Counted from the stretch's first letter, positions 11,314-62,370 are shown. The stretch: DNA of 64,000 nt from an uncultured Candidatus Saccharibacteria bacterium (GCA_964365305.1 CAYIPG010000001.1:2214-66213), one strand, 5' to 3'. Notes: generated by a model not told the origin, from the letters alone. Numbers and translations are program-made.

Positions 11314-12281
11314 GATATTTTTTTATCTTCCCAATTATAAACCCAGTCGTTATTTATCAAACTGGCGAAGCGGCCGCGATAATAATCGCGGTTCAACATT
11401 TCAGTATGAGTCATCTCCCTTTGGGGCAAACCGACCATTTCTTTCCAATCAGGAATTTCTTTTTCAACTATATTTTTTTGTTCCTCTTTTGATAATTTAG
11501 CAAAATCGGATAAGTCCTTTAACAACTCCGGCGTTATGGAAACCGGACCGTCCTTGGTTTTATCGGCCGGCAGAATCGTAAAATGCCTTTCAATATAATC
11601 CGCCCCTAACATTATCGCCGCTTTGGATACCTTAATACCATCGCGAGAAATCAGAGTATGGTCCGACCAACCAATGCGGGGAGTAAATTGACGCAACCAA
11701 TCCAGACGAGCTAAGTTAGCCATGGCCAGAGTATTGGGATAATTGGTAACGCAGTGTAAAAAAACAAAGTCCTTATTTTTTGATTTTAAGATCTCGGCGG
11801 TTTTTTTAATTTCCTCGTCAAACGAAGCGCCGGTGGAAATTATCAAATTATCAAAATTATCCGATAGTTCCGAAACCATAGCATGACTGCCGCAATCATA
11901 ACTGGCCACCTTAACCATTTTTTGACTGGCGTAGGGCAAAGCAGCGGCCAATGGAATTCTGTTTCTGGAAAAAACTGTAAGCATCGGCGCTACACCGACT
12001 TTATTGCATTCGTCCACAAAAAACTTGTAGTCATCTGCCGTTAAATCAACACCCCGCAATCTTTCCAGTTCGGCCTGATATGGCCGCTTGATAGTTGTGC
12101 GAACACCGTTGTTTTCTTCGTGGCCTTCTTCAAACCGTTCGCGGCAAGTTAGATCCTCCGAGAATATAATTTGCCCCTTAACAATATCGGCGCCGTTTTC
12201 TTTAGCGGCATAAATCATATCTCTCAAAATTTGACGGTCGCCGTTGTGATTTTGGCAAATTTCAACGATTATTTTAGGCAT
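11310..12281 (-). CDS. Second NeuB-family (PEP-sugar aldolase) paralog, shorter and without a clear SAF domain.
   Basis: IVEICQNHNGD, HCVTNYP, GWSDHT and ERHFT motifs of the NeuB fold. Overlaps the downstream NeuB by 4 nt. Confidence 0.65.
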   Translation of the reverse strand: MPKIIVEICQNHNGDRQILRDMIYAAKENGADIVKGQIIFSEDLTCRERFEEGHEENNGVRTTIKRPYQAELERLRGVDLTADDYKFFVDECNKVGVAPMLTVFSRNRIPLAAALPYASQKMVKVASYDCGSHAMVSELSDNFDNLIISTGASFDEEIKKTAEILKSKNKDFVFLHCVTNYPNTLAMANLARLDWLRQFTPRIGWSDHTLISRDGIKVSKAAIMLGADYIERHFTILPADKTKDGPVSITPELLKDLSDFAKLSKEEQKNIVEKEIPDWKEMVGLPQREMTHTEMLNRDYYRGRFASLINNDWVYNWEDKKIS

Positions 12282-31569: not shown

Positions 31570-32649
31570 CTAAAAAATTTTAATCTTTTTCCTAATATTT
31601 TTAATTATTGAACCCATGACTAAATAAAATCCAAATATGACTCCCATAAATATATAATTCCATCCAGCTCCATGCCATAAACCTATAAGCATAAAAGTAA
31701 TAAAGGTACTTGCATATATCCAGCTTTTTGTTTTGTTTTTCCGACTAAATACCAGGGGATAATAAAGATAATCTCTTAACCAAGTTGATAGTGAAATATG
31801 CCAGCGGCGCCAAAATTCTTCTATATTTCTTGAAAAGTAAGGATAGGAAAAATTTCTCATTAACTTAAAACCGAACAGTTTGGCCGTGCCAATCGCAATA
31901 TCAGAATATCCAGAAAAATCAGCATAAAGCTGGAAAGCAAAAAAGAAAGTGGCAATTAACAACTGATTGCCAGAAACATTTGATAAATTACTATATGTAT
32001 TATTTACAGCAATCGCTAACATGTCCGCTATAAATATTTTCTTAAAAAAACCCCATAGCATTTGCCGACAACCGTCAATAGCTTCTTCCATTTTAAATAC
32101 TCTTTCTCGCGCGAACTGCGTTAAAAAACTTTGCGCTCTATCTATTGGTCCAGCGATAAGTTGGGGAAAAAATGAAACAAATGCTAAAAACTCTGTAAAA
32201 TTACCGGCCGCAGGAATCTTGCGCCGATAAACATCAATGGCGTAACTTAATTCTTTAAAAGTATAAAAACTGATACCGACCGGTAAAATAATGTTAAGCG
32301 TAGTAACCGAAGTTAAAGCCATACCAGCAGACAAAAATAATCCCTGCAACGAACTAATAAAAAAGTTAAAGTATTTAAAAAAACCAAGGATGCCAAGGCT
32401 TGAAATTATAGTTATTGTTAAATAAATTTTGCGCCTTTGTGTATCGTCTGTGTTATGAATTTTCTTTCCCAAAAGAAAACTTATCGTGCTTGATATAAAA
32501 ATTAAAAATAGAAAACGCCAATCCCACCAACCATAAAAAATATAACTAACTATAAGAATAAATAAATTCTGCCTTGCTCTGTTCAATTTCCAGTAAATCA
32601 GGAAAACAAACGCTAAAAAAATTATAAATTCCAAAGAGTTAAAAAGCAT
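31570..32649 (-). CDS. MBOAT-family membrane-bound O-acyltransferase (DltB/AlgI-like).
   Basis: FWRRWHISLSTWLRDYLYYPL contains the invariant MBOAT His motif; multi-TM, 359 aa. Confidence 0.8.
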   Translation of the reverse strand: MLFNSLEFIIFLAFVFLIYWKLNRARQNLFILIVSYIFYGWWDWRFLFLIFISSTISFLLGKKIHNTDDTQRRKIYLTITIISSLGILGFFKYFNFFISSLQGLFLSAGMALTSVTTLNIILPVGISFYTFKELSYAIDVYRRKIPAAGNFTEFLAFVSFFPQLIAGPIDRAQSFLTQFARERVFKMEEAIDGCRQMLWGFFKKIFIADMLAIAVNNTYSNLSNVSGNQLLIATFFFAFQLYADFSGYSDIAIGTAKLFGFKLMRNFSYPYFSRNIEEFWRRWHISLSTWLRDYLYYPLVFSRKNKTKSWIYASTFITFMLIGLWHGAGWNYIFMGVIFGFYLVMGSIIKNIRKKIKIF

Positions 32650-39183: not shown

Positions 39184-39993
39184 CTATTGTTTAAGTTTAA
39201 GCGTTTTCCCCACTACACGAAAAGTATGGGTCAATTCTTCTAGTTGCTGTTGCCGTTTCTCACGCATGATTTCAAAAAGTGTCGTCTCTTCTTCGGTCTT
39301 TTGCGCCGGCGGATATAAAAAATCAATCGGTACGGAAACTATTTTATAACCGGCGGCCATCACTTCTAAGCGTGCCGTGTCTTGAATATAGTTATCAGAA
39401 ACTCCAAATCGTTTAGCCGGATAACATTCCGCAAAATAAGAGAGTAATCCTCGCCTAAATGCCACCGGACCAAAAGCCACATCAAAACATTTACCGGTAG
39501 TATCAGCAAAAACAGCGTTGATCTGCTTTTCGGATTTTATCTGGAACATCGGGTAGCTGGCATAACTGGTTGGGGTGCGTTCAGGAATCACAAGATCGGC
39601 CTCACCGCGCTGAATCGGCGCGATGATTTGCGGAACCCAGCGAATTATATCCGCTTTCTCCGGTTCGGTCCAAAGAAAAATATCCGCTTTATTATCATCA
39701 TTGGCAACCATGCTGAATAATTCTCTCTTTTGATTACCCATACCCTTCTCACCCGCCTGTCGGTGAACCTTAGCTCCGACTTTGGCCAAGGCGCGGCTAA
39801 CAGTAGCATCAATTGATCCATCCACCACTACAACATCATAACCAACAGCTATAGCTTTCCCAATAAGCTGGCAAGCTAACTGGAAACGGGTCTCAGTGGT
39901 CCTTTTATATAAAGTTGCCGTGAGTATTGTGATATTGTTCATATTATTAGCTGTTTGTAGATAGAAATATAATTTTGAACAACTTTTTGCCAA
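39184..39993 (-). CDS. Putative GT-A-fold glycosyltransferase-like protein. The true start is probably the internal Met near 39942.
   Basis: ITILTATLYKR...YDVVVVDGSID...GEKGMGNQ resembles GT2/GT81-like N-terminal Rossmann plus acidic motif. The annotated 5' end overlaps the upstream GT4 by 55 nt. Confidence 0.35.
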   Translation of the reverse strand: MAKSCSKLYFYLQTANNMNNITILTATLYKRTTETRFQLACQLIGKAIAVGYDVVVVDGSIDATVSRALAKVGAKVHRQAGEKGMGNQKRELFSMVANDDNKADIFLWTEPEKADIIRWVPQIIAPIQRGEADLVIPERTPTSYASYPMFQIKSEKQINAVFADTTGKCFDVAFGPVAFRRGLLSYFAECYPAKRFGVSDNYIQDTARLEVMAAGYKIVSVPIDFLYPPAQKTEEETTLFEIMREKRQQQLEELTHTFRVVGKTLKLKQ

Positions 39994-41042
39994 TCCATAG
40001 TCCTGGCAAAATTTAAGGACTCTCGCGAAAATGACTCTCTTAACATACTATCGGACAAAATTTTCTCCATAGCATCGGCCGCCTCCAAATGATCTGATGG
40101 TGAAACCAGCGTACCATTTTCGCCATCCAAAACCGCATCTTCAGCACTAGTCCCGCGCGAAGAAACGATTGGCAATCCGCACGCCGCCGCTTCTAAAAAG
40201 ACCAGTCCGAAACCCTCTATATCTTTGTTAATATCTTGCGGCAACAAAATAAACAACTCGGCGTTTTTATACAGTCCAACCAGTTCCTCCTCGGATAAAT
40301 CTTTCAGAAATATTACCCGATCCTGCAATTTGAGATGTGAGATTTGTGACTTGAGATTTTGATATTCTGGACCACTGCCAACAATCACATACTTAAGATC
40401 GGGAAACTTCGGCGCGATTTGGGCAAACACCTTGATAGAGTATTCATAACCCTTGCGTTTTTTTAGTGTGCCCACGCTTAAAATATAGGGCTTAAGTTTT
40501 TGAACTTTAGCATCACTTTGATATTTGCCTGCCCCGTAGCGAGCTTGCTCTGCTTCGGGGATATTTGATATTTGATACTTATCAAAATCCACCCCATGGT
40601 TAATCACTTCAATCTTTAAATCAGGAATTACCCTTAGTATCTCTCTTTTTGTATTATTGCTGATAGCTGTAATTTGGTCGGCCTTTCGATAAGCCCAAAT
40701 CAAAAGTTGTTTTTTGATCGGTTGATATAACGGCTGAACCGCGCCAGTGCCAATAGTTGTTATTACAATCTTTTTGCCAAGACCCAAAGAAAAAACTGCG
40801 GCTATCACACCATATGGCCAACCATCTAAAGCGTGAACTATATCGCAACTCTTAAAAACCGACCTTATTTTAAATAATCGAAAAATAATCCTTAAAAAAC
40901 CTCCAGACAATAGATTATCCGAAGTTAAAATTTCATACTGATAATGGGATTCTGCTTTCTTTAAAGCGCTTGAAAACGACAAAAAAAACCGCCCTGATCC
41001 TGTATTCGATGATAAATCATTGTTCAAAAAGCACACTTTCAT
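39939..41042 (-). CDS. GT4-family (group 1) glycosyltransferase.
   Basis: GLVFLEAAACGLPIVSS...DGENG (EX7E region). Contains a 7-nt-periodic repeat tract at 40328-40362. Confidence 0.75.
   Translation of the reverse strand: MKVCFLNNDLSSNTGSGRFFLSFSSALKKAESHYQYEILTSDNLLSGGFLRIIFRLFKIRSVFKSCDIVHALDGWPYGVIAAVFSLGLGKKIVITTIGTGAVQPLYQPIKKQLLIWAYRKADQITAISNNTKREILRVIPDLKIEVINHGVDFDKYQISNIPEAEQARYGAGKYQSDAKVQKLKPYILSVGTLKKRKGYEYSIKVFAQIAPKFPDLKYVIVGSGPEYQNLKSQISHLKLQDRVIFLKDLSEEELVGLYKNAELFILLPQDINKDIEGFGLVFLEAAACGLPIVSSRGTSAEDAVLDGENGTLVSPSDHLEAADAMEKILSDSMLRESFSRESLNFARTMDWQKVVQNYISIYKQLII
40328..40362. repeat. Degenerate heptanucleotide tandem repeat (tttgaga/tgtgaga/tttgtga/cttgaga/ttttgat) inside the GT4 gene.
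   Basis: Read directly. Shares the 18-19-nt string tttgtgacttgagatttt with the repeat at 60508-60535 in another GT4 gene. Confidence 0.7.
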
Positions 41043-53763: not shown

Positions 53764-54921
53764 TTAACTCAACCTTTTCTCCAAAAGTTTCCTGTTTATT
53801 TTTACTGACTTTAAAATCTTCACTATCCTTTCCGAAGCCCGACCATCGCCCAAATGCGGCTTGATATTTTTAAGTTTTTGCCTAAAAATCTTATTTGCCA
53901 AAACATATCTTATCTTTTCGATTACATCGGTTTTATTATGATTTGAATCAACCACATTACTGGATCTAGATCGGCCGGTTTGACGATGACCGATATTCAC
54001 CGCCGGCAATTTTAGGTAAGGGGCTTCTACCAAAGCTCCAGAGGAATTACCAATCATAGCTTTAGCCGCGGCCATCAAACCCAAAAAATCCAAATTTTCT
54101 ATATTCTTATAAATTTTGAAATTAGAGTCGTGATCAACTTCATGGATGGCCTTGATAATTCCTTCGTAACCCGGATCGGAACAAGGATAAAGCAGAACTG
54201 ATTTAAAATCTAACGATTTGATCGCGCCAAGAATTAACTTCATATCTTCATAGTTCTCTCGGCTAGTTTTCATTGTTTCAGGATGGTAAATGGTAATAAA
54301 AAAATCTTCACCGGGCCAAGCGTATTTAGCCGCAGCCGCCTTAGGAACAGTAAATATTCTCTTAATAATACGATCTATATAAACCGAACCGACTGTGTGA
54401 ATGCGCCACGACTCTTCGCCCAACGACCTAACAATTTGGGCCGCTCTTTTAGTTTCCGGAAAATGAATGTGAGCTAACTTAGTAATAGCGTGCCGTTGAA
54501 CATCGTCTACATTACCGGACGACTCACCACCTTGGGTGTGAGCAATGGGTATATTCAAAGACAAAGCCGCAAAGGCAATCATCAAATGTTCCCCGCGGTC
54601 GGCGTGCACCAAAACAATATCAGGCCTTAATTTATTAAGAACCGACACGCTCCTAGTCAGACACAAACCCAAATTCTCGGCCCTGATGACCGCCGAATCT
54701 CCACGGCCAGTGCCTATATCAATAACCTCTATTTTTGACTTTGGGAAAAGATTATTTGCCTCGTCGACAGTTTTTCCAAACTGCGGTGAGGCATGCATAT
54801 CAGAAAGAAGAAGCTGTAATTCCAAACCCGGGTCTTTTTCAATTAGTTTTATAAGTTCAGAATAAGCGCCTAGGCCACCCCTCTTGCCCGAAAAAACACA
54901 GATTTTTCTTTTTTTTTTCAT
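53764..54921 (-). CDS. Second UDP-N-acetylglucosamine 2-epimerase, hydrolysing type (NeuC-like).
   Basis: IAHTQGGE...RHAITKLAHIHF...VGSVYIDR, colinear with the 8945-10207 protein. Confidence 0.75.
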   Translation of the reverse strand: MKKKRKICVFSGKRGGLGAYSELIKLIEKDPGLELQLLLSDMHASPQFGKTVDEANNLFPKSKIEVIDIGTGRGDSAVIRAENLGLCLTRSVSVLNKLRPDIVLVHADRGEHLMIAFAALSLNIPIAHTQGGESSGNVDDVQRHAITKLAHIHFPETKRAAQIVRSLGEESWRIHTVGSVYIDRIIKRIFTVPKAAAAKYAWPGEDFFITIYHPETMKTSRENYEDMKLILGAIKSLDFKSVLLYPCSDPGYEGIIKAIHEVDHDSNFKIYKNIENLDFLGLMAAAKAMIGNSSGALVEAPYLKLPAVNIGHRQTGRSRSSNVVDSNHNKTDVIEKIRYVLANKIFRQKLKNIKPHLGDGRASERIVKILKSVKINRKLLEKRLS

Positions 54922-54927
54922 TATTTT

Positions 54928-56328
54928 TTATTTATATAACTTTAATTTAAAAAGATAATCTTTAAAGAGAATTATGATATTTTTATAAAGGCCGACTGCA
55001 AAAAAAACATCATCGCGATTAAATACAAAAATCTCTTTAACTCTTATTTTTAAATAAGGACGCGCCTTAACTAACCAGTAATAAAACAGGATCGTTGTAA
55101 TAGCATAGGTTATAACATACTCTAACGCCGCGCCCCACACTCCAAGAATAGGCAAAAGCAAAGCCAATAAGCCAATAGATAAAAAAGTATTATCAAATGA
55201 GCGAATAAATAATATGCGCTGTTCTTGTAAAGCTATTATCATCATACGCAAAACCTTGTAAAAACCATACAAGAAAAAAACAACTGACATGAGCTTAATG
55301 AGGGATACCGCCTCGCTATATTTTGGGAAAAAGTAATGTATAACCATAGGCACAAAAATAAAAAAACAGATACCCAGTAAAAGACCCAAAAAAGAAGAAT
55401 ATTTCAACATTCTAGCAAAAATATGCCTTAATCTTTTATGATCATCTAACTCTCTAGGCAATAAAAGACCCATGGTTCCTATCGGAAATAAAGTAATTAT
55501 AAAGGCCAGCGCAGATCTGGCTAAACTGTATATAGCCACGGCCTCTGTGTTCAGAAAAAACTTTACTAGCCATAACCTGGTGCTACTGGATAACTTAGAT
55601 AAAATATTTCTAAGCAACACCCATAAACCATGTGCTTTTACAAGCGGCCATAAAATGCCATTACTTGCAAGCGCTGATTGAGCGAAAAGTTTAAAGTAGG
55701 CCTTTATAAAATAAAAACTGGAAAATGCCAAAGCGCAGAATTGAGAAACAATGTGAATAATTAAAACAGTTTTTATGTTTAAACCCTGCTTGGTAATAAA
55801 CAGAGTGACTATAATTAAAGTTTTTACAAGCTCACCCGCTAATGGAACCGATAAATTTAAAAAAGAAATTTTAGATCTAAAAAAAGAATCCTGCACCGAC
55901 TGCATGCTCTCAATAAGTATCATTATGCTGGCGATTTTAATATAAATCCCCAGACCCTGGCTATAATAGTTAGAAATAATATCTGCTCCCAAAAAAACCA
56001 AAATCGCAAGTATTACCCCCAAAACCGTTTTAGCTCCAGCATATTCCAAAAACAACCGTTTAGCTGACCTTATATTTAACTGTCCAATAAACCTGCTTAA
56101 GCTAACTTCCACAATAGAATCTATTCCACCCGAAGTCAGACTGCTGGCTATGGTTATAAAAGAAATCACTAGCTGATATAAACCAAAATCATAAACGGTC
56201 AGCAAAGTCAAAATCATGGCGGAATTTATCAAAACAACAAATTTTACGGATAAATTCCAAAAACCGGAAATGACTTCCCCTTCTATCAAATTTCTTGCCA
56301 AAGAATGTCCTTTTATTTCCATATTCAA
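54928..56328 (-). CDS. Wzx-like polysaccharide flippase (MOP superfamily).
   Basis: 466 aa, about 12-14 TM helices, no soluble domain; sits in the operon between glycosyltransferases and NeuC. Confidence 0.5.
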   Translation of the reverse strand: MNMEIKGHSLARNLIEGEVISGFWNLSVKFVVLINSAMILTLLTVYDFGLYQLVISFITIASSLTSGGIDSIVEVSLSRFIGQLNIRSAKRLFLEYAGAKTVLGVILAILVFLGADIISNYYSQGLGIYIKIASIMILIESMQSVQDSFFRSKISFLNLSVPLAGELVKTLIIVTLFITKQGLNIKTVLIIHIVSQFCALAFSSFYFIKAYFKLFAQSALASNGILWPLVKAHGLWVLLRNILSKLSSSTRLWLVKFFLNTEAVAIYSLARSALAFIITLFPIGTMGLLLPRELDDHKRLRHIFARMLKYSSFLGLLLGICFFIFVPMVIHYFFPKYSEAVSLIKLMSVVFFLYGFYKVLRMMIIALQEQRILFIRSFDNTFLSIGLLALLLPILGVWGAALEYVITYAITTILFYYWLVKARPYLKIRVKEIFVFNRDDVFFAVGLYKNIIILFKDYLFKLKLYK

Positions 56329-57378
56329 CTAAAAAGCGAGAGCGATACTTAATTTCTCCATCAAATAGTTTAAGCTATGGTGGTTAACAACAATATCTCT
56401 TAACTCACTTGTTAATCTAATCTCCTCGTTGCTTTCCAATTTTAGCAAATTAATTATCTTTGACCCTAAATTATCAGAATCCCCTTCATTAAAAATAAAA
56501 AGGTTGACCAATTTTGAGGGTAAGATATCTTTATAAGATAAATTAGAAACTAATATCATGGTTTCGCAGGACATTGCTTCCAAAGTAGTTTTATCTAAAC
56601 TTCCGGTTGGGGTTAAATTTATGAAAATACGGCTCTCATTGTAAGCTAAAACCGCCTCTGAATTTGGAATAGATGATCTAAAAATTATTTTACCGTCTTT
56701 TATTAATTTTAGAGACATGGTCTTCAACTTATTCTTGTAAAATTCATCAGCTCTAGAAGAGGGAGAACCAATAATATAAATTTGAAAATCAATTTTCTGC
56801 CTATCTAGTAACTCAGCCGCCGAGATTAGCACTTCTATTTTTTTAATGGGCGAGATACGGCCTAGAAATAAAATTTGATTATGATTTTTTGCGACAGGGA
56901 CCTTCTTAAAAAGATCAACATCAATTCCAGCCGGCATTAAATTTGTTTTGCTAAACTTGGCCGCAAAAGAATATTTTGAGGTGCAAAAAACTCTACCTGA
57001 AAAAAAAATCCCTACTCTATCTATAACATTACCCATAGGATGGTTATACCACAATGAAGTTTTCTTATCATAAAGTTTCCAAAATAAACCGCCCAGCACA
57101 ATATAGATAGGATTCATATGCACAAACACTACATCATAATCATGCCTTAATTTCCAAATATACTTATAAAAATTAAATATATATTTGAGCCGAGACGGAC
57201 CTGATTCTTTGCCTAACGAAAAAACCCCGACATTGTTTGGCAATTCGGTTTTACCTTGATAGAGACAGACCACCGAGATCTTAGTGAATTTTTGAGCTAA
57301 TTTGCTTATCCAACTATGATAAACGCCCAAAATATCATCATCCAGGTCTACTTTTTGAGTTATAAACAAAAGTTTCAT
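56329..57378 (-). CDS. GT4-family glycosyltransferase (divergent).
   Basis: C-terminal LEAMSCETMILVSN (EX7E-like region); 349 aa GT-B size. Confidence 0.5.
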   Translation of the reverse strand: MKLLFITQKVDLDDDILGVYHSWISKLAQKFTKISVVCLYQGKTELPNNVGVFSLGKESGPSRLKYIFNFYKYIWKLRHDYDVVFVHMNPIYIVLGGLFWKLYDKKTSLWYNHPMGNVIDRVGIFFSGRVFCTSKYSFAAKFSKTNLMPAGIDVDLFKKVPVAKNHNQILFLGRISPIKKIEVLISAAELLDRQKIDFQIYIIGSPSSRADEFYKNKLKTMSLKLIKDGKIIFRSSIPNSEAVLAYNESRIFINLTPTGSLDKTTLEAMSCETMILVSNLSYKDILPSKLVNLFIFNEGDSDNLGSKIINLLKLESNEEIRLTSELRDIVVNHHSLNYLMEKLSIALAF

Positions 57379-58335: not shown

Positions 58336-59505
58336 TTAAAATATAACATTAATTAAGGCAATTTTGTAACGTTCTATATATTCTTTTTTGGATATAAAAT
58401 TCTGGGATGTCTCTAAAGCATTTTGGGCGAATTCTTTACATTTTTTTTTGTCAATAATTAATTCAATCATTCTACTGGCAAGTATATGACTATTGCCTAC
58501 AGGCACAACAAACCCGTTAATATTATTAATCACTATTTCGTTTGCCGGAGCAACATCCGTCATAATGACAGGCAGTCCGGAAGCGATGGCCTCTGAAGGA
58601 GACCGCGCGCCGCCCTCATAGTTGGATGTTAAAATAAAAAAATCAGCTGTTTTGTAATACGATATTATATCGTTGGTCCATGATTCAAAAATAACATAAT
58701 TTTGTAACTTGTAACTTGTAACTTGTAACTTTAAACCATCCAATTCGGGGCCGTCACCAACAATAAGCAATAATGTTTTTGGATAATCAGTAATTATATC
58801 TTTCATGGCCTTGATAGCCATACCAACATTTTTTTCTTTAGTTAGGCGAGAGGCCATTAATATAATAGGTTCATGTTTTTTATATTTTGTATGGAGATTT
58901 ATTTTGACAGAACCATTTGTAAAACGATCCATATCATATACTATAGGCAAAACAGTAATAGGGTTTAGGGTATGGGGTTTAGGGTATAGCGACAATAAAG
59001 AGTTTTTAATTCGTTCGGAAACTACCCGAAGACAATTTGCTTTCTTTACTAATCGTTGAGCCATTAAAACACGGACTTTATTCTTCAATGATTCTCGCCA
59101 AAAATACGGGCTTAAAAAATCGGTGTGGATCTGGATTTGCAGTGGTAATTTAAATTTTTTCTTTAATAGATAACCCACCCAACCGGTTTCAAAAGGATCC
59201 TGGGTGGTGATTACACAATTTCTAATTTCCCCACCTTCGCTAAAACTTCGGCGGGCGAGTAATTTTAAATTTCTAAGTATACCGCTAGAAATTTTGTAAG
59301 CGTCCCAAAAGTAAAATAGGTTGATCTTGGTATTGGTGGGATATAAAAAAACATTACTAAAGTTTTGCGTTTTTAGTTTTGCGTTTTTAGTTTTTATTAC
59401 TATATGTAGCTCTTCCACCAAACCGCCATAGTCCGCCATTCTTTGGCGGACTTCTGATCCTTCAACAAATATATTCTTATCAGTAGACAACATTAAGACC
59501 TTCAT
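58336..59505 (-). CDS. GT4-family glycosyltransferase carrying several in-gene tandem repeats.
   Basis: GGARSPSEAIASGLPVIMTD...NGFVVP (EX7E). Repeats at 58702-58729, 58962-58988 and 59362-59391. Confidence 0.75.
   Translation of the reverse strand: MKVLMLSTDKNIFVEGSEVRQRMADYGGLVEELHIVIKTKNAKLKTQNFSNVFLYPTNTKINLFYFWDAYKISSGILRNLKLLARRSFSEGGEIRNCVITTQDPFETGWVGYLLKKKFKLPLQIQIHTDFLSPYFWRESLKNKVRVLMAQRLVKKANCLRVVSERIKNSLLSLYPKPHTLNPITVLPIVYDMDRFTNGSVKINLHTKYKKHEPIILMASRLTKEKNVGMAIKAMKDIITDYPKTLLLIVGDGPELDGLKLQVTSYKLQNYVIFESWTNDIISYYKTADFFILTSNYEGGARSPSEAIASGLPVIMTDVAPANEIVINNINGFVVPVGNSHILASRMIELIIDKKKCKEFAQNALETSQNFISKKEYIERYKIALINVIF
58702..58729. repeat. (ttgtaac)x4 heptanucleotide tandem repeat inside the GT4 coding sequence.
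   Basis: Counted base by base. It encodes the duplicated KLQVTSYKLQ in the protein. Confidence 0.85.
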
Positions 59506-60140
59506 TTTTCTAAAATAAAAAACAATCTATAACCATCCAAAACCGGCCGTATTTTTTTAACCGATTTAAAATTATTTTTTAAAATTTTTACTATTCTACC
59601 CAGCCGATATTTATAACCGTCTATTTCCCAGTAATGTTGGCCAGAACTGGCAAAACCCCTAAAAAACCAAGGAAATCTAAGGAAAAACACCAAAAAATTA
59701 CTTTTAAAAATTGTTCTAATTCCAGGAAACTTAAAAACAAATTCAAAACCGGAAGAACGGTAGGGTAAAGAAATAATTACATTTTTTTTACTGACCCTTT
59801 TTAATTCCATAAGAGTTCTCTCAAAGTCCTCCCACGGCAAATGTTCAAGAACTTCAAAAGTAGTCACAACATCAAAACTACTGCTTTCAAACGGCAAGTT
59901 TCTAACATCCGCGATAACATCTGAATTCAAATCTTTGTCTATATCGCAAGTAATAACTTCCAAACCAGTGGATTTTAAATAAGCCGAAGTGATATTTACC
60001 CCAACTCCAACTTCTAAAACTTTACCAGAATTTCCAACCAAATCGGACACTAAACTGGTCTGATAATAATACGAAATAAATCTTTCCAAAGAGTTATATT
60101 TTTTTCTAAAATAGTGTGACTTTTTAACTTGTGTGTCCAT
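59502..60140 (-). CDS. Class I SAM-dependent methyltransferase.
   Basis: VLEVGVGVNITSAYL motif I-like and FEVLEHLP; 212 aa. Confidence 0.5.
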   Translation of the reverse strand: MDTQVKKSHYFRKKYNSLERFISYYYQTSLVSDLVGNSGKVLEVGVGVNITSAYLKSTGLEVITCDIDKDLNSDVIADVRNLPFESSSFDVVTTFEVLEHLPWEDFERTLMELKRVSKKNVIISLPYRSSGFEFVFKFPGIRTIFKSNFLVFFLRFPWFFRGFASSGQHYWEIDGYKYRLGRIVKILKNNFKSVKKIRPVLDGYRLFFILEK

Positions 60141-60141
60141 C

Positions 60142-62370
60142 TTATTTATTTAATATCTCTAGCAAATTACTAATAGTTCTTTCTATGGAAAAATCTCTGG
60201 ATCTAACCAAGGCATTCTGGGACAATTTCTCTCTTAAAAAATTGTTCTCGTTTATCTTTTTAATAGCGTCCACAAACTCTTCTTTATTATTTGGAGCAAG
60301 TAATATCCCATCAAAACCGTTAGTGATGATTTCTGATATGTTGCCGATATTAGTGGTTACAACCGGCAAACCCAGACCCATCGCCTCTACTATTTGAAAC
60401 GAAAAACTCTCAAAAGAAGTATTGAGAACAAATATGCTGGTCTGTTCTAAATACTCTAAAACTTTTTCTCTAGGAACTGCCCCTGTGAGTTCAACACGGT
60501 TCTCCAATTTGTGACTTGAGATTTGTGACTTGAGATTTTCATGCTCTGGTCCATCTCCGATAATTATCAACTTCCACTCCGGCAGATCCAGCATCATGCT
60601 TATAACCATATCAAACCCCTTCCACGGCACAAGCCGACCAACTGAAACAATGATCTTGTTCTCTCGATGATTTGAGGTTTGAGATTTGAGGTTTGAGGTT
60701 TTCACGCCATTGTATATCGTTATTACTTTGTCTGGATTCTTGACCCAACCCGATACTAGTTTTCTAAAATACTGGCTCGGGGTAATAACCGTGTCGGCGT
60801 GACCAACCACAAATTTCTGAACCTTTCTTAAAAATTCAACCCTAAAACCATATTTATTTTTTTGAAAATCATCAATGGAGTCATTTACACCAAAACGCTG
60901 AACCGATTGCTCCCACACATAATCGCCCGGCACGCGAATAATGAATTTCTTTCGCGCTAATCTGGTTGCAACAAGAGCCGGCAAGCCGGCGCTGATAGTA
61001 TCTTGCGCCAAAATAACATCGCTAATCAAGGCCTTTTTGAAGCATACCCAAAAATAAACTAGATGCCGTATCCCCTTAGGCAGACCCCTAGAGACCCCAG
61101 ACGGGCCATAAGTGACCACCTTAACCCCCACACCGCGCCGGGGTAACTCTTTAACCAATAGCGAAGCATATGTGGCTGGACCGCCGATATCGGGCGGATA
61201 AATTCCGGTGGCCAAAAGCAGACGAATATCAAAAATTTGTGATTTTAAAAGTTCGCCCATTCTTTTGGAAATACTGTTCCAAGAATAGTTCGAGATAACC
61301 AATTCCCGACCATTTTTAGAAAGTTTCTCCGATAAACCAACATCTGATAATAAAAGTTTTATCTTTTCCGCAAGATCGTTATGATTTTCAATCTCGCAAA
61401 ACAAACCGGTCTCGCCGTCTTTTAGAAAGTCAGTTATACCTCCTACCGGCGTGCCAATGACCGGCAACCCCGCCGCCATGGCTTCTAAAAAAGAGTTGCC
61501 TAAACCTTCGGAACGGGATGGCCGAACAAATATATCGGCTTGAGACAAGTATTGAGGAATTAAGTCGGGGTCAACATGGCCGATAAATTTGACTCTGTCG
61601 GCAACACCTAAGTCAGTGACCAATTTTTCTAGTTTAGACCTGTCGGGACCGTCGCCAATAATTTGTAATTTGTAATTTGTAATTTGTAATTTAGCGCAGG
61701 CCCGAATCAGAATATCAACACCGTTTTTATAAACCAACCGCGAAGTCGTAATAACCGTATAAGCCCCATTGGACTTATAGGTCTTATTGGACTTATAGGC
61801 ATCTAAATTGACTCCATTCGGCACCACTTCTATTGGACATCTAGCGCCGTGCCGTTTAGCAAAATCAACTAGGTGATTGCTGATGGCTTGTATATAATCG
61901 GCTTTCTTGAATATCATCTTCCAGAACGGATAAAATATCCCAATTTTTTTTAGTATATGTTTTTCCGAATCTCCTTCCTGCAAAGTCAACAACATCGGCA
62001 CTCGTGGATACAACAATTTAAAAAACAAAACCCCCAAACCAGCGTAAGCGGCCATGATAGACCACGAAATTTTATATTGATTTTTTCTGTGCAACTTCCC
62101 AGCTAAAAATGCCGATTTAATCGGGAAGGATATTTTACTGCCATCAATTCTAAAAATGCGGACTCTGCCCATAGTTTCTCTGGAGAGGCGGCTCTTATCA
62201 AAACGCAAGGTTATCAAATCAAAATCAAAAGAATCACCCAGACGATCGGTGATTTCTTTAACAGCTATTTCCGCCCCGCCCACCAACGGAAAATAGGCCA
62301 GAGAAAAAATTAAAACCCGCGGCTTTTTTGCCATACCTATAAAACTCTTAGGTCGCGGATTAGATAACAT
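60142..62370 (-). CDS. Tandem double GT4 glycosyltransferase (two complete GT-B modules in one 742-aa protein).
   Basis: Two EX7E regions: LEAMAAGLPVIGTPVGGITDFLKDGETG in the N-terminal half and VEAMGLGLPVVTTNIGNISEIITNGFDG in the C-terminal half. Several in-gene repeat tracts. Confidence 0.8.
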   Translation of the reverse strand: MLSNPRPKSFIGMAKKPRVLIFSLAYFPLVGGAEIAVKEITDRLGDSFDFDLITLRFDKSRLSRETMGRVRIFRIDGSKISFPIKSAFLAGKLHRKNQYKISWSIMAAYAGLGVLFFKLLYPRVPMLLTLQEGDSEKHILKKIGIFYPFWKMIFKKADYIQAISNHLVDFAKRHGARCPIEVVPNGVNLDAYKSNKTYKSNGAYTVITTSRLVYKNGVDILIRACAKLQITNYKLQIIGDGPDRSKLEKLVTDLGVADRVKFIGHVDPDLIPQYLSQADIFVRPSRSEGLGNSFLEAMAAGLPVIGTPVGGITDFLKDGETGLFCEIENHNDLAEKIKLLLSDVGLSEKLSKNGRELVISNYSWNSISKRMGELLKSQIFDIRLLLATGIYPPDIGGPATYASLLVKELPRRGVGVKVVTYGPSGVSRGLPKGIRHLVYFWVCFKKALISDVILAQDTISAGLPALVATRLARKKFIIRVPGDYVWEQSVQRFGVNDSIDDFQKNKYGFRVEFLRKVQKFVVGHADTVITPSQYFRKLVSGWVKNPDKVITIYNGVKTSNLKSQTSNHRENKIIVSVGRLVPWKGFDMVISMMLDLPEWKLIIIGDGPEHENLKSQISSHKLENRVELTGAVPREKVLEYLEQTSIFVLNTSFESFSFQIVEAMGLGLPVVTTNIGNISEIITNGFDGILLAPNNKEEFVDAIKKINENNFLREKLSQNALVRSRDFSIERTISNLLEILNK
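60508..60535. repeat. (tttgtgacttgaga)x2 tandem repeat in the double-GT4 gene.
   Basis: Shares tttgtgacttgagatttt with 40342-40362. Confidence 0.8.
60671..60698. repeat. (tttgagg/tttgaga)x4 heptanucleotide repeat in the double-GT4 gene.
   Basis: tttgagg tttgaga tttgagg tttgagg, counted directly. Confidence 0.85.
61659..61692. repeat. (taatttg)x4.8 heptanucleotide repeat in the double-GT4 gene.
   Basis: It encodes KLQITNYKLQI at the junction region of the N-terminal GT4 module. A second 18-nt in-frame duplication (attggacttatagg...) lies at 61769-61800. Confidence 0.85.

Follow-up and report, generated by a model that had tools for sequence, protein, structure and literature searches.

Heptanucleotide tandem tracts in the GT4 glycosyltransferase genes of a groundwater Patescibacteria member and its relatives

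The window analyzed here is a stretch of 64,000 nt (GCA_964365305.1 CAYIPG010000001.1:2214-66213) from an uncultured member of the Patescibacteria of Hainich groundwater, and the region of interest is a glycan-biosynthesis locus in which the genes described below are all on the minus strand. Three of the four GT4 glycosyltransferase genes of the window carry tandem tracts with a unit of 7 or 14 nt inside their reading frames, in mid-gene positions and with up to three tracts in one gene. In diverged genomes such arrays return at a few homologous surface sites of the enzymes, built from differing units. We consider, at about even confidence, that the tracts are genuine heptanucleotide microsatellites, which would have been born by slippage and then fixed in frame as coding filler in hypervariable surface segments.

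Tracts in the window and the protein segments they encode

A preliminary description of this DNA had listed five tracts, all variants of TTTGNRR, inside intact GT4 genes. Four of these are confirmed by both Tandem Repeats Finder (TRF) and direct reading, and the fifth, at 40328-40362, by direct reading only (19/28 lag-7 matches), as it is absent from the TRF output. The open reading frames (ORFs) are all intact and have strong Pfam GT4 matches. However, the list was incomplete, since the same genes also carry tracts at 58958-58989, 59361-59394 and 40560-40577 and a 9-mer repeat at 61768-61796 (Table 1), and the TTTGNRR pattern does not extend to the tracts that TRF added. By TRF, the 7-mers of the window are present in 4.3-4.9 units and the 14-mers in 1.9-2.4 units; a 14-nt unit would represent two diverged 7-nt units. 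A periodicity scan of the 64 kb, in which a 21-nt window had to contain 19 or more matches, picked up lags 7 and 14 and no others, and 200 shuffles gave none. TRF showed no comparable clean 7-nt tract in the approximately 50 other ORFs of the window, and returned no row for the methyltransferase gene that lies between the two GT4 genes ORF1 and the double GT4 and serves as context and internal control. The remaining period-7 rows, at 32493 and 54903, reflect weak low-complexity sequence rich in AT or T. The second of these (54903-54935, TRF periods 7 and 10-12) is T-rich, extends over the 3' end of 54928-56328, a short gap and the 5' end of 53764-54921, and is probably an unrelated AT-rich spacer.

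The GT4 assignment is based on predicted Pfam Glycos_transf_1 and Glyco_transf_4 domains (E = 3.9e-38 to 8.5e-87). In an AlphaFold model of ORF1 (mean predicted local distance difference test (pLDDT) score 92.6), two domains with alternating strands and helices are seen, and from this model the protein is predicted to have the GT-B two-Rossmann fold. The tracts at 58702 (KLQVTSYKLQ), 60507 (NLKSQISSHKL) and 40328 (NLKSQISHLKLQ) encode the helix after the GDGP motif; in the ORF1 model the first of these is helix 255-264 (pLDDT 98), the second lies in module 2 of the double GT4, and in the gene at 39939-41042 the helix follows GSGPE. The others are found elsewhere. The 61659 tract encodes the segment immediately preceding GDGP in module 1 of the double GT4, and the 60671 tract the linker preceding GRLVPWKG in module 2 (site class A). 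The 9-mer at 61768 corresponds to the linker preceding ITTSRLVxKNG in module 1, a region that is length-variable in a 36-sequence alignment (A1). In ORF1, the 58958 tract encodes the N/C interdomain linker (model loop 174-182, pLDDT 78) and the 59361 tract an N-domain hairpin loop (model loop 38-46, between strands 32-37 and 47-49). The earlier statement that all tracts occupy an equivalent protein position applies to just the three GDGP helices. Nor do these sites hold insertions of KLQ/NLKSQ type, as had been supposed, because in alignment A1 protein length at the GDGP sites is equal in orthologues with and without the repeat; the tracts replace surface elements of the fold rather than being inserted into it. 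Orthologues of 43-78% identity have heptad-periodic peptides at the same sites, e.g., NLKSQISNLKL, NLKFKIENLKL, NLESRILNLEL and LKLQITNYKLQ.

Table 1. Genes and repeat tracts of the window. Positions are counted from its first nucleotide, and units are given on the sense strand unless stated.
Feature	Position	Strand	Evidence and product
ORF1, GT4 glycosyltransferase, 389 aa	58336-59505	-	Pfam Glycos_transf_1, E = 3.9e-38; three 7/14-nt tracts
Methyltransferase gene	59502-60140	-	Pfam Methyltransf_11
Double GT4 glycosyltransferase (two fused modules), 742 aa	60142-62370	-	Two Pfam Glycos_transf_1 stretches, E = 8.5e-87
Third tract-bearing GT4 gene, 367 aa	39939-41042	-	Pfam Glycos_transf_1, E = 4.5e-41
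Fourth GT4 gene	56329-57378	-	
(GTTACAA)x4.3, perfect; plus-strand (TTGTAAC)	58702-58731	-	TRF, 100%; encodes KLQVTSYKLQ, aa 259-268
Period-7/14 tract, CATACCCTAAACCC x1.9	58958-58989	-	TRF; encodes LYPKPHTLNP, aa 173-183
AAAAACGCAAAACT, 14-mer x2.4, perfect	59361-59394	-	TRF; encodes KTKNAKLKTQNF, aa 38-49
CTCAAGTCACAAAT, 14-nt x2.3, perfect; plus-strand ATTTGTGACTTGAG	60507-60538	-	TRF, 100%; encodes ENLKSQISSHKL, aa 611-622
(CCTCAAA)x4.4; plus-strand (TTTGAGG)	60671-60701	-	TRF, 91%; encodes KTSNLKSQTSN, aa 557-567
(CAAATTA)x4.9, perfect; plus-strand (TAATTTG)	61659-61692	-	TRF, 100%; encodes KLQITNYKLQI, aa 227-238
In-frame 9-nt repeat x3.2	61768-61796	-	TRF, 80%; encodes YKSNKTYKSN, aa 192-201
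Degenerate 7-periodic tract	40328-40362	-	Direct reading; encodes QNLKSQISHLKLQ, aa 227-239
Plus-strand (GATATTT)x2.6	40560-40577	-	TRF; in GT4 gene 39939-41042
(TATCAAA)x4 array split by a 33-nt GC-rich hairpin (40527-40559)	40517-40577	-	

The double GT4 has more than 1,100 homologues, and among the best 120 the full-length orthologues are mostly 723-812 aa long; the fused two-module architecture is kept across Parcubacteria-type Patescibacteria (alignment A1). In a few genomes (L032 11100-11300; P0189/P0190) the double GT4 is represented by two genes, cut exactly at the intermodule linker, which in other genomes is a heptamer tract site. Two interruptions unrelated to tracts were also seen. 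At about 6370 in L053 a stop codon replaces the conserved Glu before AMAAGLP, inside the SR(S/T)EG..FLEAM(A/G)AGLP region of a GT4, and the P0170/P0172 GT4 is split after GLGS, a few residues upstream of the equivalent of this stop; these are possibly pseudogenes or sequencing errors. No Rfam family reached the gathering threshold within 39000-64000, and no tRNA genes were found.

Distribution, copy number and turnover of the tracts

Tracts were compared over 79 loci around orthologues in species-representative genomes which, together with the window and a sibling species, gave 81 loci (1.49 Mb). TRF reported 85 period-7 and 33 period-14 arrays, with every other period at 45 or fewer, and 72/85 and 23/33 of these arrays, respectively, are in GT4 ORFs. 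Triplet-period repeats follow length and show no GT4 enrichment (26 in GT4 vs. 74 in other ORFs). Perfect lag-7 runs are even more concentrated, with 57 in GT4 ORFs (134/Mb), one in other ORFs (1/Mb) and six in intergenic DNA (77/Mb), so that GT4 genes hold 57 of the 58 perfect coding arrays (binomial p = 9e-29). In total, lag 7 gave 64 perfect runs, and each further non-multiple lag between 4 and 15 gave 0-7. By family, the density of perfect arrays is 212/Mb in the double GT4, 442/Mb in the ORF1 family and 74/Mb in other GT4 paralogues. AT-richness was ruled out as the cause of the enrichment, the G+C content being 43.8% in GT4 ORFs and 44.8% in other ORFs. Among 72 tracts there are 44 distinct units, and on the sense strand G makes up 9% of the units vs. 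24% of GT4 ORFs. Around 40% of tracts are perfect, and the length distribution of these shows a second mode at 30-34 nt. The largest coding tract in the 81 loci has 7.6 units.

The concentration of non-triplet repeats in surface-glycan glycosyltransferase genes is the classic signature of contingency loci, and the preliminary description had proposed that slipped-strand gain or loss of units switches these enzymes ON and OFF. Its arithmetic is correct, as the unit length is not divisible by three and one unit more or less frameshifts every gene tested, giving truncated products of 44-642 aa. Copy number and ON/OFF states were compared using assembled consensus sequences. This organism is represented by three assemblies, made independently from samples of two wells and two filter fractions. 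They showed no gaps at 99.95-100% identity over up to 13.9 kb (seven single-nucleotide polymorphisms (SNPs) in one of them), and since the tracts are identical in all, an assembly artefact was ruled out. Four assemblies of the sibling species (77% aa identity) likewise showed no gaps despite 10-34 SNPs. Among 69 full-length orthologues forming ten clusters of at least 90% identity there was no indel within any tract, and the differences found were whole-segment replacements of recombinant origin. In an ORF1 relative of 81% identity, two tracts are unchanged in length and differ by two amino acids.

None of 95 tracts in GT4 ORFs of related genomes contained a frame break. OFF alleles were also sought in the short members of clusters and in homologues with a short N terminus, but the breaks there were at contig ends or outside tracts. 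The sole split allele found at a tract site (a linker, in L259) has an ambiguous 1-nt shift in the context of a GC-palindrome and an A-run, on a 1.5-kb contig. A flank-anchored, variable-gap search of metagenome contigs for other alleles of the 61659 tract gave no match. The window tracts, with 4-5 copies, also fall under the cut-off of at least five copies that PhasomeIt applies to long units (PMC6321876). Of the features that mark contingency loci, a non-triplet unit in a reading frame and an association with surface-structure genes are present, while a tract length in the range shown to switch, a repeat number that varies between strains, and the occurrence of both ON and OFF alleles among genomes were not seen. 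Fixed copy number, which the preliminary description had named as the outcome that would contradict it, was found across assemblies and orthologues, and the claim of switching fails at the consensus level; the frame-breaking unit and the concentration in GT4 genes are what survive of it.

Between species the picture is different, and tract sites are likely hypervariable at this distance and stable between strains. In 1,174 orthologue comparisons, the median nucleotide identity was 0.39 at tract sites vs. 0.54 in control windows, and this lower conservation weakened the candidate explanation of long-term conservation of the tracts at the nucleotide level. Identical pairs are slightly in excess at tracts (0.5% vs. 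0.04%), which fits a limited repertoire of units. The sibling species carries other units, partly at other positions. Some orthologous units differ at one or two positions in most or all copies (AATTACA, AATTACC and AACTACC, for example), and at the 61659 site the change to AATTACC in L010 or AACTACC in L056 is carried by most or all copies. There are also tracts that are 100% identical in genes of about 60% nucleotide identity (window/L008, L019/L029 and L009/L010), the 58702 tract having its identical copy at the corresponding site of L008. The 14-mer of the 58958 tract recurs at the corresponding site of L009. The unit CCCTAAA/CCCTATA, which is complementary to the telomere repeat of plant type, TTTAGGG, is found at several different GT4 sites and in different genomes (window 58958-58989; L009 11148-11200, 11791-11820 and 12854-12887; L011, L014 and L024), and its in-frame TAA is always patched away. 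Some near-identical double-GT4 alleles are mosaics (P0152 vs. P0062 and P0054; P0169 vs. P0048; P0173). In P0152 the sequence passes from P0062-like to P0054-like at the module 2 linker that precedes GRLxxKG, and P0062 carries an insert, ALSAGRPV, at this point.

A subset of arrays is split by GC-rich palindromes. In the window, a 33-nt hairpin at 40527-40559 (sense strand CCCGAAGCAGAGCAAGCTCGCTACGGGGCAGGC; -15.7 kcal/mol, z = -2.6) lies in frame inside a (TATCAAA)x4 array, and its deletion leaves a perfect array; in the L014 case, too, taking out the insert was found to leave a continuous array. About nine heptamer arrays, all within GT4 ORFs, are split in this way. The inserts belong to a family of roughly 21-90 nt that occurs in many Patescibacteria, with a core GCCTRCCGGYAGGCAGGC or a terminus ..CGGGGCAGGC, and give peptide signatures such as LPAGRQG, PACRQAR, [PS]AGEAG and CLPVGK. 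They are located at L012 10534-10561 and 12898-12925, L014 2911-2937, L038 10554-10584 and 11558-11588, L077 12608-12635, L059 10590-10639, L011 1131-1200, L023 7816 and 8002, and L008 about 11940-12025. Composites of array plus insert occur in two copies per genome in L012, L023 and L038, and in L012 an identical 47-nt composite is present in two genes. Related palindromes are also intergenic (L014 2237, L037 906). A 7-bp target-site duplication of the inserts was ruled out as the source of period 7, because insert lengths are divisible by 3 and the tracts bring no gain in length.

Heptamer arrays are not confined to GT4 genes. The intergenic examples (L051 1327-1404, L060 6455-6484, L059 3577-3597, L042 17719-17762, L077 5597-5633) include some long ones, such as (TGCTAGG)x11.1, and several contain CTAG and begin 6-16 nt past the upstream stop codon. 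A scan of metagenome contigs of all taxa for a single unit, (AAATCTC) at 3.7 copies or more, gave at least 129 arrays in at least 120 stretches; among the matches listed, three were in GT4 ORFs, and the GT4 bias did not reappear in this unbiased scan. In low-G+C contigs (L161, L163, L252, L167, L184, L214, L222, L215, L224, L253), (AAATCTC)n is in frame in genes that by eye resemble ValS, TsaD (twice), DnaG, LepA, TopA (twice), LigA, GuaA, GlmM and a GT2. The TopA gene of L222, from candidate division CPR3, has two such tracts, and comparison with its orthologues indicates that they are lineage-specific loop fillers or insertions. Contigs with one (AAATCTC)n array hold many further 7-nt arrays, whatever their G+C content. 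AAATCTC was ruled out as a special universal element, because a composition-matched control, AACTATC, which does not occur in GT4 tracts, was comparably frequent in viral contigs (10 matches vs. 17 and 25 for real units). In several phage-like contigs of about 42-70% G+C (among L087-L103, e.g., L094, L099 and L091), (AAATCTC)n lies a few bases 5' of an apparent start codon, the expected place of a ribosome-binding site. Heptamer arrays are a general class of simple sequence repeat (SSR), as noted earlier (PMC4692102), and ON/OFF switching cannot be their general role.

Comparison with known repeat systems

SSR contingency loci are well known from the glycosyltransferase genes for lipooligosaccharide (LOS) and capsule, such as lic2A and lgtC of H. 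influenzae, the poly-G genes of C. jejuni and lgt of N. meningitidis. In these genes long tracts of 1-5-nt units, usually close to the 5' end, differ between strains, and genome collections contain both ON and OFF alleles. The GT4 tracts are similar in being non-triplet SSRs of surface-glycan glycosyltransferase genes in small-genome, cell-dependent bacteria, but show none of the short unit, length, 5' position, polymorphism or ON/OFF alleles. Rickettsia palindromic elements, which are palindromes of about 100-150 bp lying in frame in ORFs, and the triplet-based low-complexity regions of Plasmodium are other cases in which repetitive DNA is tolerated in ORFs, whether essential or not, at surface loops and in reduced, AT-rich genomes. 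The GT4 tracts differ from both in their 7-nt tandem unit, their length of about 30 nt, and in mostly replacing sequence instead of adding length.

A closer parallel is NeuO, the O-acetyltransferase of E. coli K1 prophage CUS-3, which has a coding heptanucleotide repeat (poly-psi, AAGACTC), three units of which give the heptad RLKTQDS (PMC3046976). The GT4 tracts share with it a coding heptanucleotide in a surface-glycan enzyme and the frameshift caused by one unit more or less, and three of their units likewise give one heptad (KLQVTSY, KLQITNY, NLKSQTS and NLKSQIS). In NeuO, however, the single tract begins 2 nt after the start codon, encodes a dispensable N-terminal extension and has 2-93 copies; copy number differs between isolates, high-frequency switching has been measured, and the heptads raise enzyme activity (PMC3046976). 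The GT4 tracts are instead mid-gene, up to three per gene and of 4-5 copies, replace core surface elements, and did not vary in copy number in the assemblies or orthologues compared. Bacterial heptameric SSRs in general are over-represented, with about four units commonest, and polymerase slippage and a polymerase-footprint hypothesis have been put forward for their origin (PMC4692102). As far as that source goes, the GT4 tracts agree with this class in the predominance of period 7 over all other SSR periods and in a commonest size of about four units. It also cites heptamers of cyanobacteria, GGGAATC of Xanthomonas and GGGGAYT of Nostoc (Mrazek 2007, via PMC4692102). The Xanthomonas and Nostoc heptamers are there described as G-rich and strongly over-represented in intergenic DNA, unlike the GT4 tracts, which are G-poor on the sense strand, in frame in ORFs and concentrated in one enzyme family (57/64 perfect arrays in GT4).

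Origin of the tracts, alternative explanations and implications

In the explanation that we favor, tracts would originate by replication slippage or out-of-register template switching, with 7-nt units favored by the known bacterial heptamer bias. As 7 and 3 are coprime, reading passes through all three frames in the course of three units (21 nt), which give one peptide period of seven residues. Persistence would then require that all sense-strand frames of a tract are open, being either stop-free or patched by point changes, that its overall length preserves the reading frame, and that its peptide is tolerated. The surviving tracts have a G-poor sense strand and encode peptides rich in K, N, Q, S, T, L, I and Y. 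These peptides stand in for parts of the GT-B surface, namely the post-GDGP helix, the segment that precedes GDGP, linkers between domains and between modules, and the hairpin loop. The tracts would turn over between species while being fixed within them. Because the enzyme is truncated by a change of one unit, OFF mutants are bound to appear, although rarely, and we regard this mutability as a latent by-product, neither a demonstrated nor a necessary function.

Several observations weigh against this explanation. Tolerance alone predicts a coding density well below the intergenic one, but the density in GT4 ORFs is the higher of the two (134/Mb and 77/Mb), and other ORFs of equal G+C have 1/Mb; the more than 100-fold GT4 enrichment is therefore not accounted for by tolerance alone, which indicates positive selection or a GT4-specific process. 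Low-rate switching, exchange between paralogues or another process specific to GT4 genes is possible. A few orthologue pairs keep 100% identical tracts despite saturated third codon positions. Units are shared within genomes more often than expected (7 pairs vs. 1.6, p = 0.0015), and the string common to two GT4 genes, given as 18-19 nt in the preliminary description, extends to 23 nt (40338-40360 = 60517-60539; shuffle maximum 14) in paralogues of 31% aa identity. Neither the sharing nor the 23-nt identity is predicted by independent local slippage. The explanation also does not account for the replacement of a segment without a change in length.

The tracts could alternatively be true contingency loci, in which low-rate slipped-strand OFF/ON changes of single GT4 enzymes are selected and diversify the glycan against phages or hosts, second-order selection maintaining repeat purity and the GT4 association in these episymbiotic bacteria. 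The enrichment of non-triplet but not triplet-period repeats in glycan glycosyltransferase genes, a density at least that of intergenic DNA, the proportion of perfect tracts, some of them identical over deep divergence, the truncation of every gene tested, and the precedent of NeuO as a capsule-modifying enzyme with a coding heptanucleotide variable-number tandem repeat all argue for this. We nevertheless give it a minority chance, as neither copy-number polymorphism nor an OFF allele was seen in any comparison of assembled consensus sequences, the L259 break is a 1-nt shift, the tracts are below the PhasomeIt cut-off, mid-gene and several per gene, and where species have kept a unit they have kept its copy number too. 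Like tracts also occur in essential genes elsewhere in the phylum (TopA, ValS, DnaG and LigA, identified by eye).

The within-genome sharing of units (AAGCTAC three times in L083, CAAATGT three times in L061), the 23-nt identity at a homologous site of distant paralogues and the repeated 47-nt composite of L012 would be expected if tracts of about 30 nt were recombination junctions that lend diverged GT4 paralogues or alleles barely sufficient identity for homologous exchange at the borders of domains and modules, either shuffling acceptor and donor domains or spreading by gene conversion within a multigene family. The presence of tracts at N/C and intermodule linkers and the existence of mosaic alleles, with P0152 changing parent at a linker site, agree with this, as does the second length mode, since 30-34 nt is close to the minimum for RecA pairing in E. 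coli. It is unlikely, however, because units are also shared at non-homologous sites, where exchange gives no functional protein, the mosaic P0169 vs. P0048 breaks away from tracts, and out-of-register exchange shifts the frame two times out of three. The split arrays suggest another possibility, modeled on the Rickettsia elements, that tracts are landing pads, arms or remnants of GC-rich palindromic mini-elements colonizing coding DNA in frame. Several of the inserts share a core or terminus, the window insert forms a stable hairpin, the composites recur within genomes, and in the window and L014 removal of the insert restores the array. Against these stand the ratio of uninterrupted to interrupted tracts (about 10:1), the lack of added length at GDGP sites, which is incompatible with an inserted arm-core-arm unit, and insert lengths in multiples of 3 with no sign of a 7-bp target duplication; the shared location may just reflect tolerance of both at permissive sites, and we hold this origin to be very improbable. 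Slimmer again is the chance that the 7-nt periodicity or the acid-free heptad peptide is itself under selection, acting for instance as a binding site, as a stretch of mRNA without structure or as a surface patch binding membrane or partner. The strand asymmetry is strong, the tract RNA has no structure, some orthologue pairs have identical tracts despite saturated synonymous sites, and heptads increase NeuO activity (PMC3046976), but the strand bias can be attributed to composition and to the avoidance of stops, the units are diverse, no Rfam match was found, and in orthologue comparisons the remainder of the gene is better conserved than the tract sites.

Fixation as coding filler remains the explanation that we prefer. 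In the literature searched, we found no description of period 7 as practically the sole tandem period in these genomes, of 7-nt tracts that replace helices or loops of a conserved fold at unchanged length, or of in-frame GC-rich hairpins within such tracts; even without switching, these features bear on how proteins of reduced genomes are shaped by microsatellites and selfish DNA. For annotation, the tracts account for the recurrent KLQ, NLKSQ and LYPKPYT low-complexity peptides in proteins of the Candidate Phyla Radiation (CPR). A bolder proposal, which we offer tentatively and think rather doubtful, is that selection keeps perfect GT4 tracts of about 30 nt as evolvability devices, either low-rate frameshift switches or junctions for recombination and gene conversion, into which palindromic mini-elements insert in frame. 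If true, this would be a previously undescribed route to surface-glycan diversity in the CPR. Patescibacteria (CPR) live attached to other cells and, to our knowledge, almost nothing is known about variation of their surfaces. For such variation, a class of frameshift-prone repeats that is enriched more than 100-fold in the glycosyltransferase genes of the CPR would provide the first candidate mechanism.

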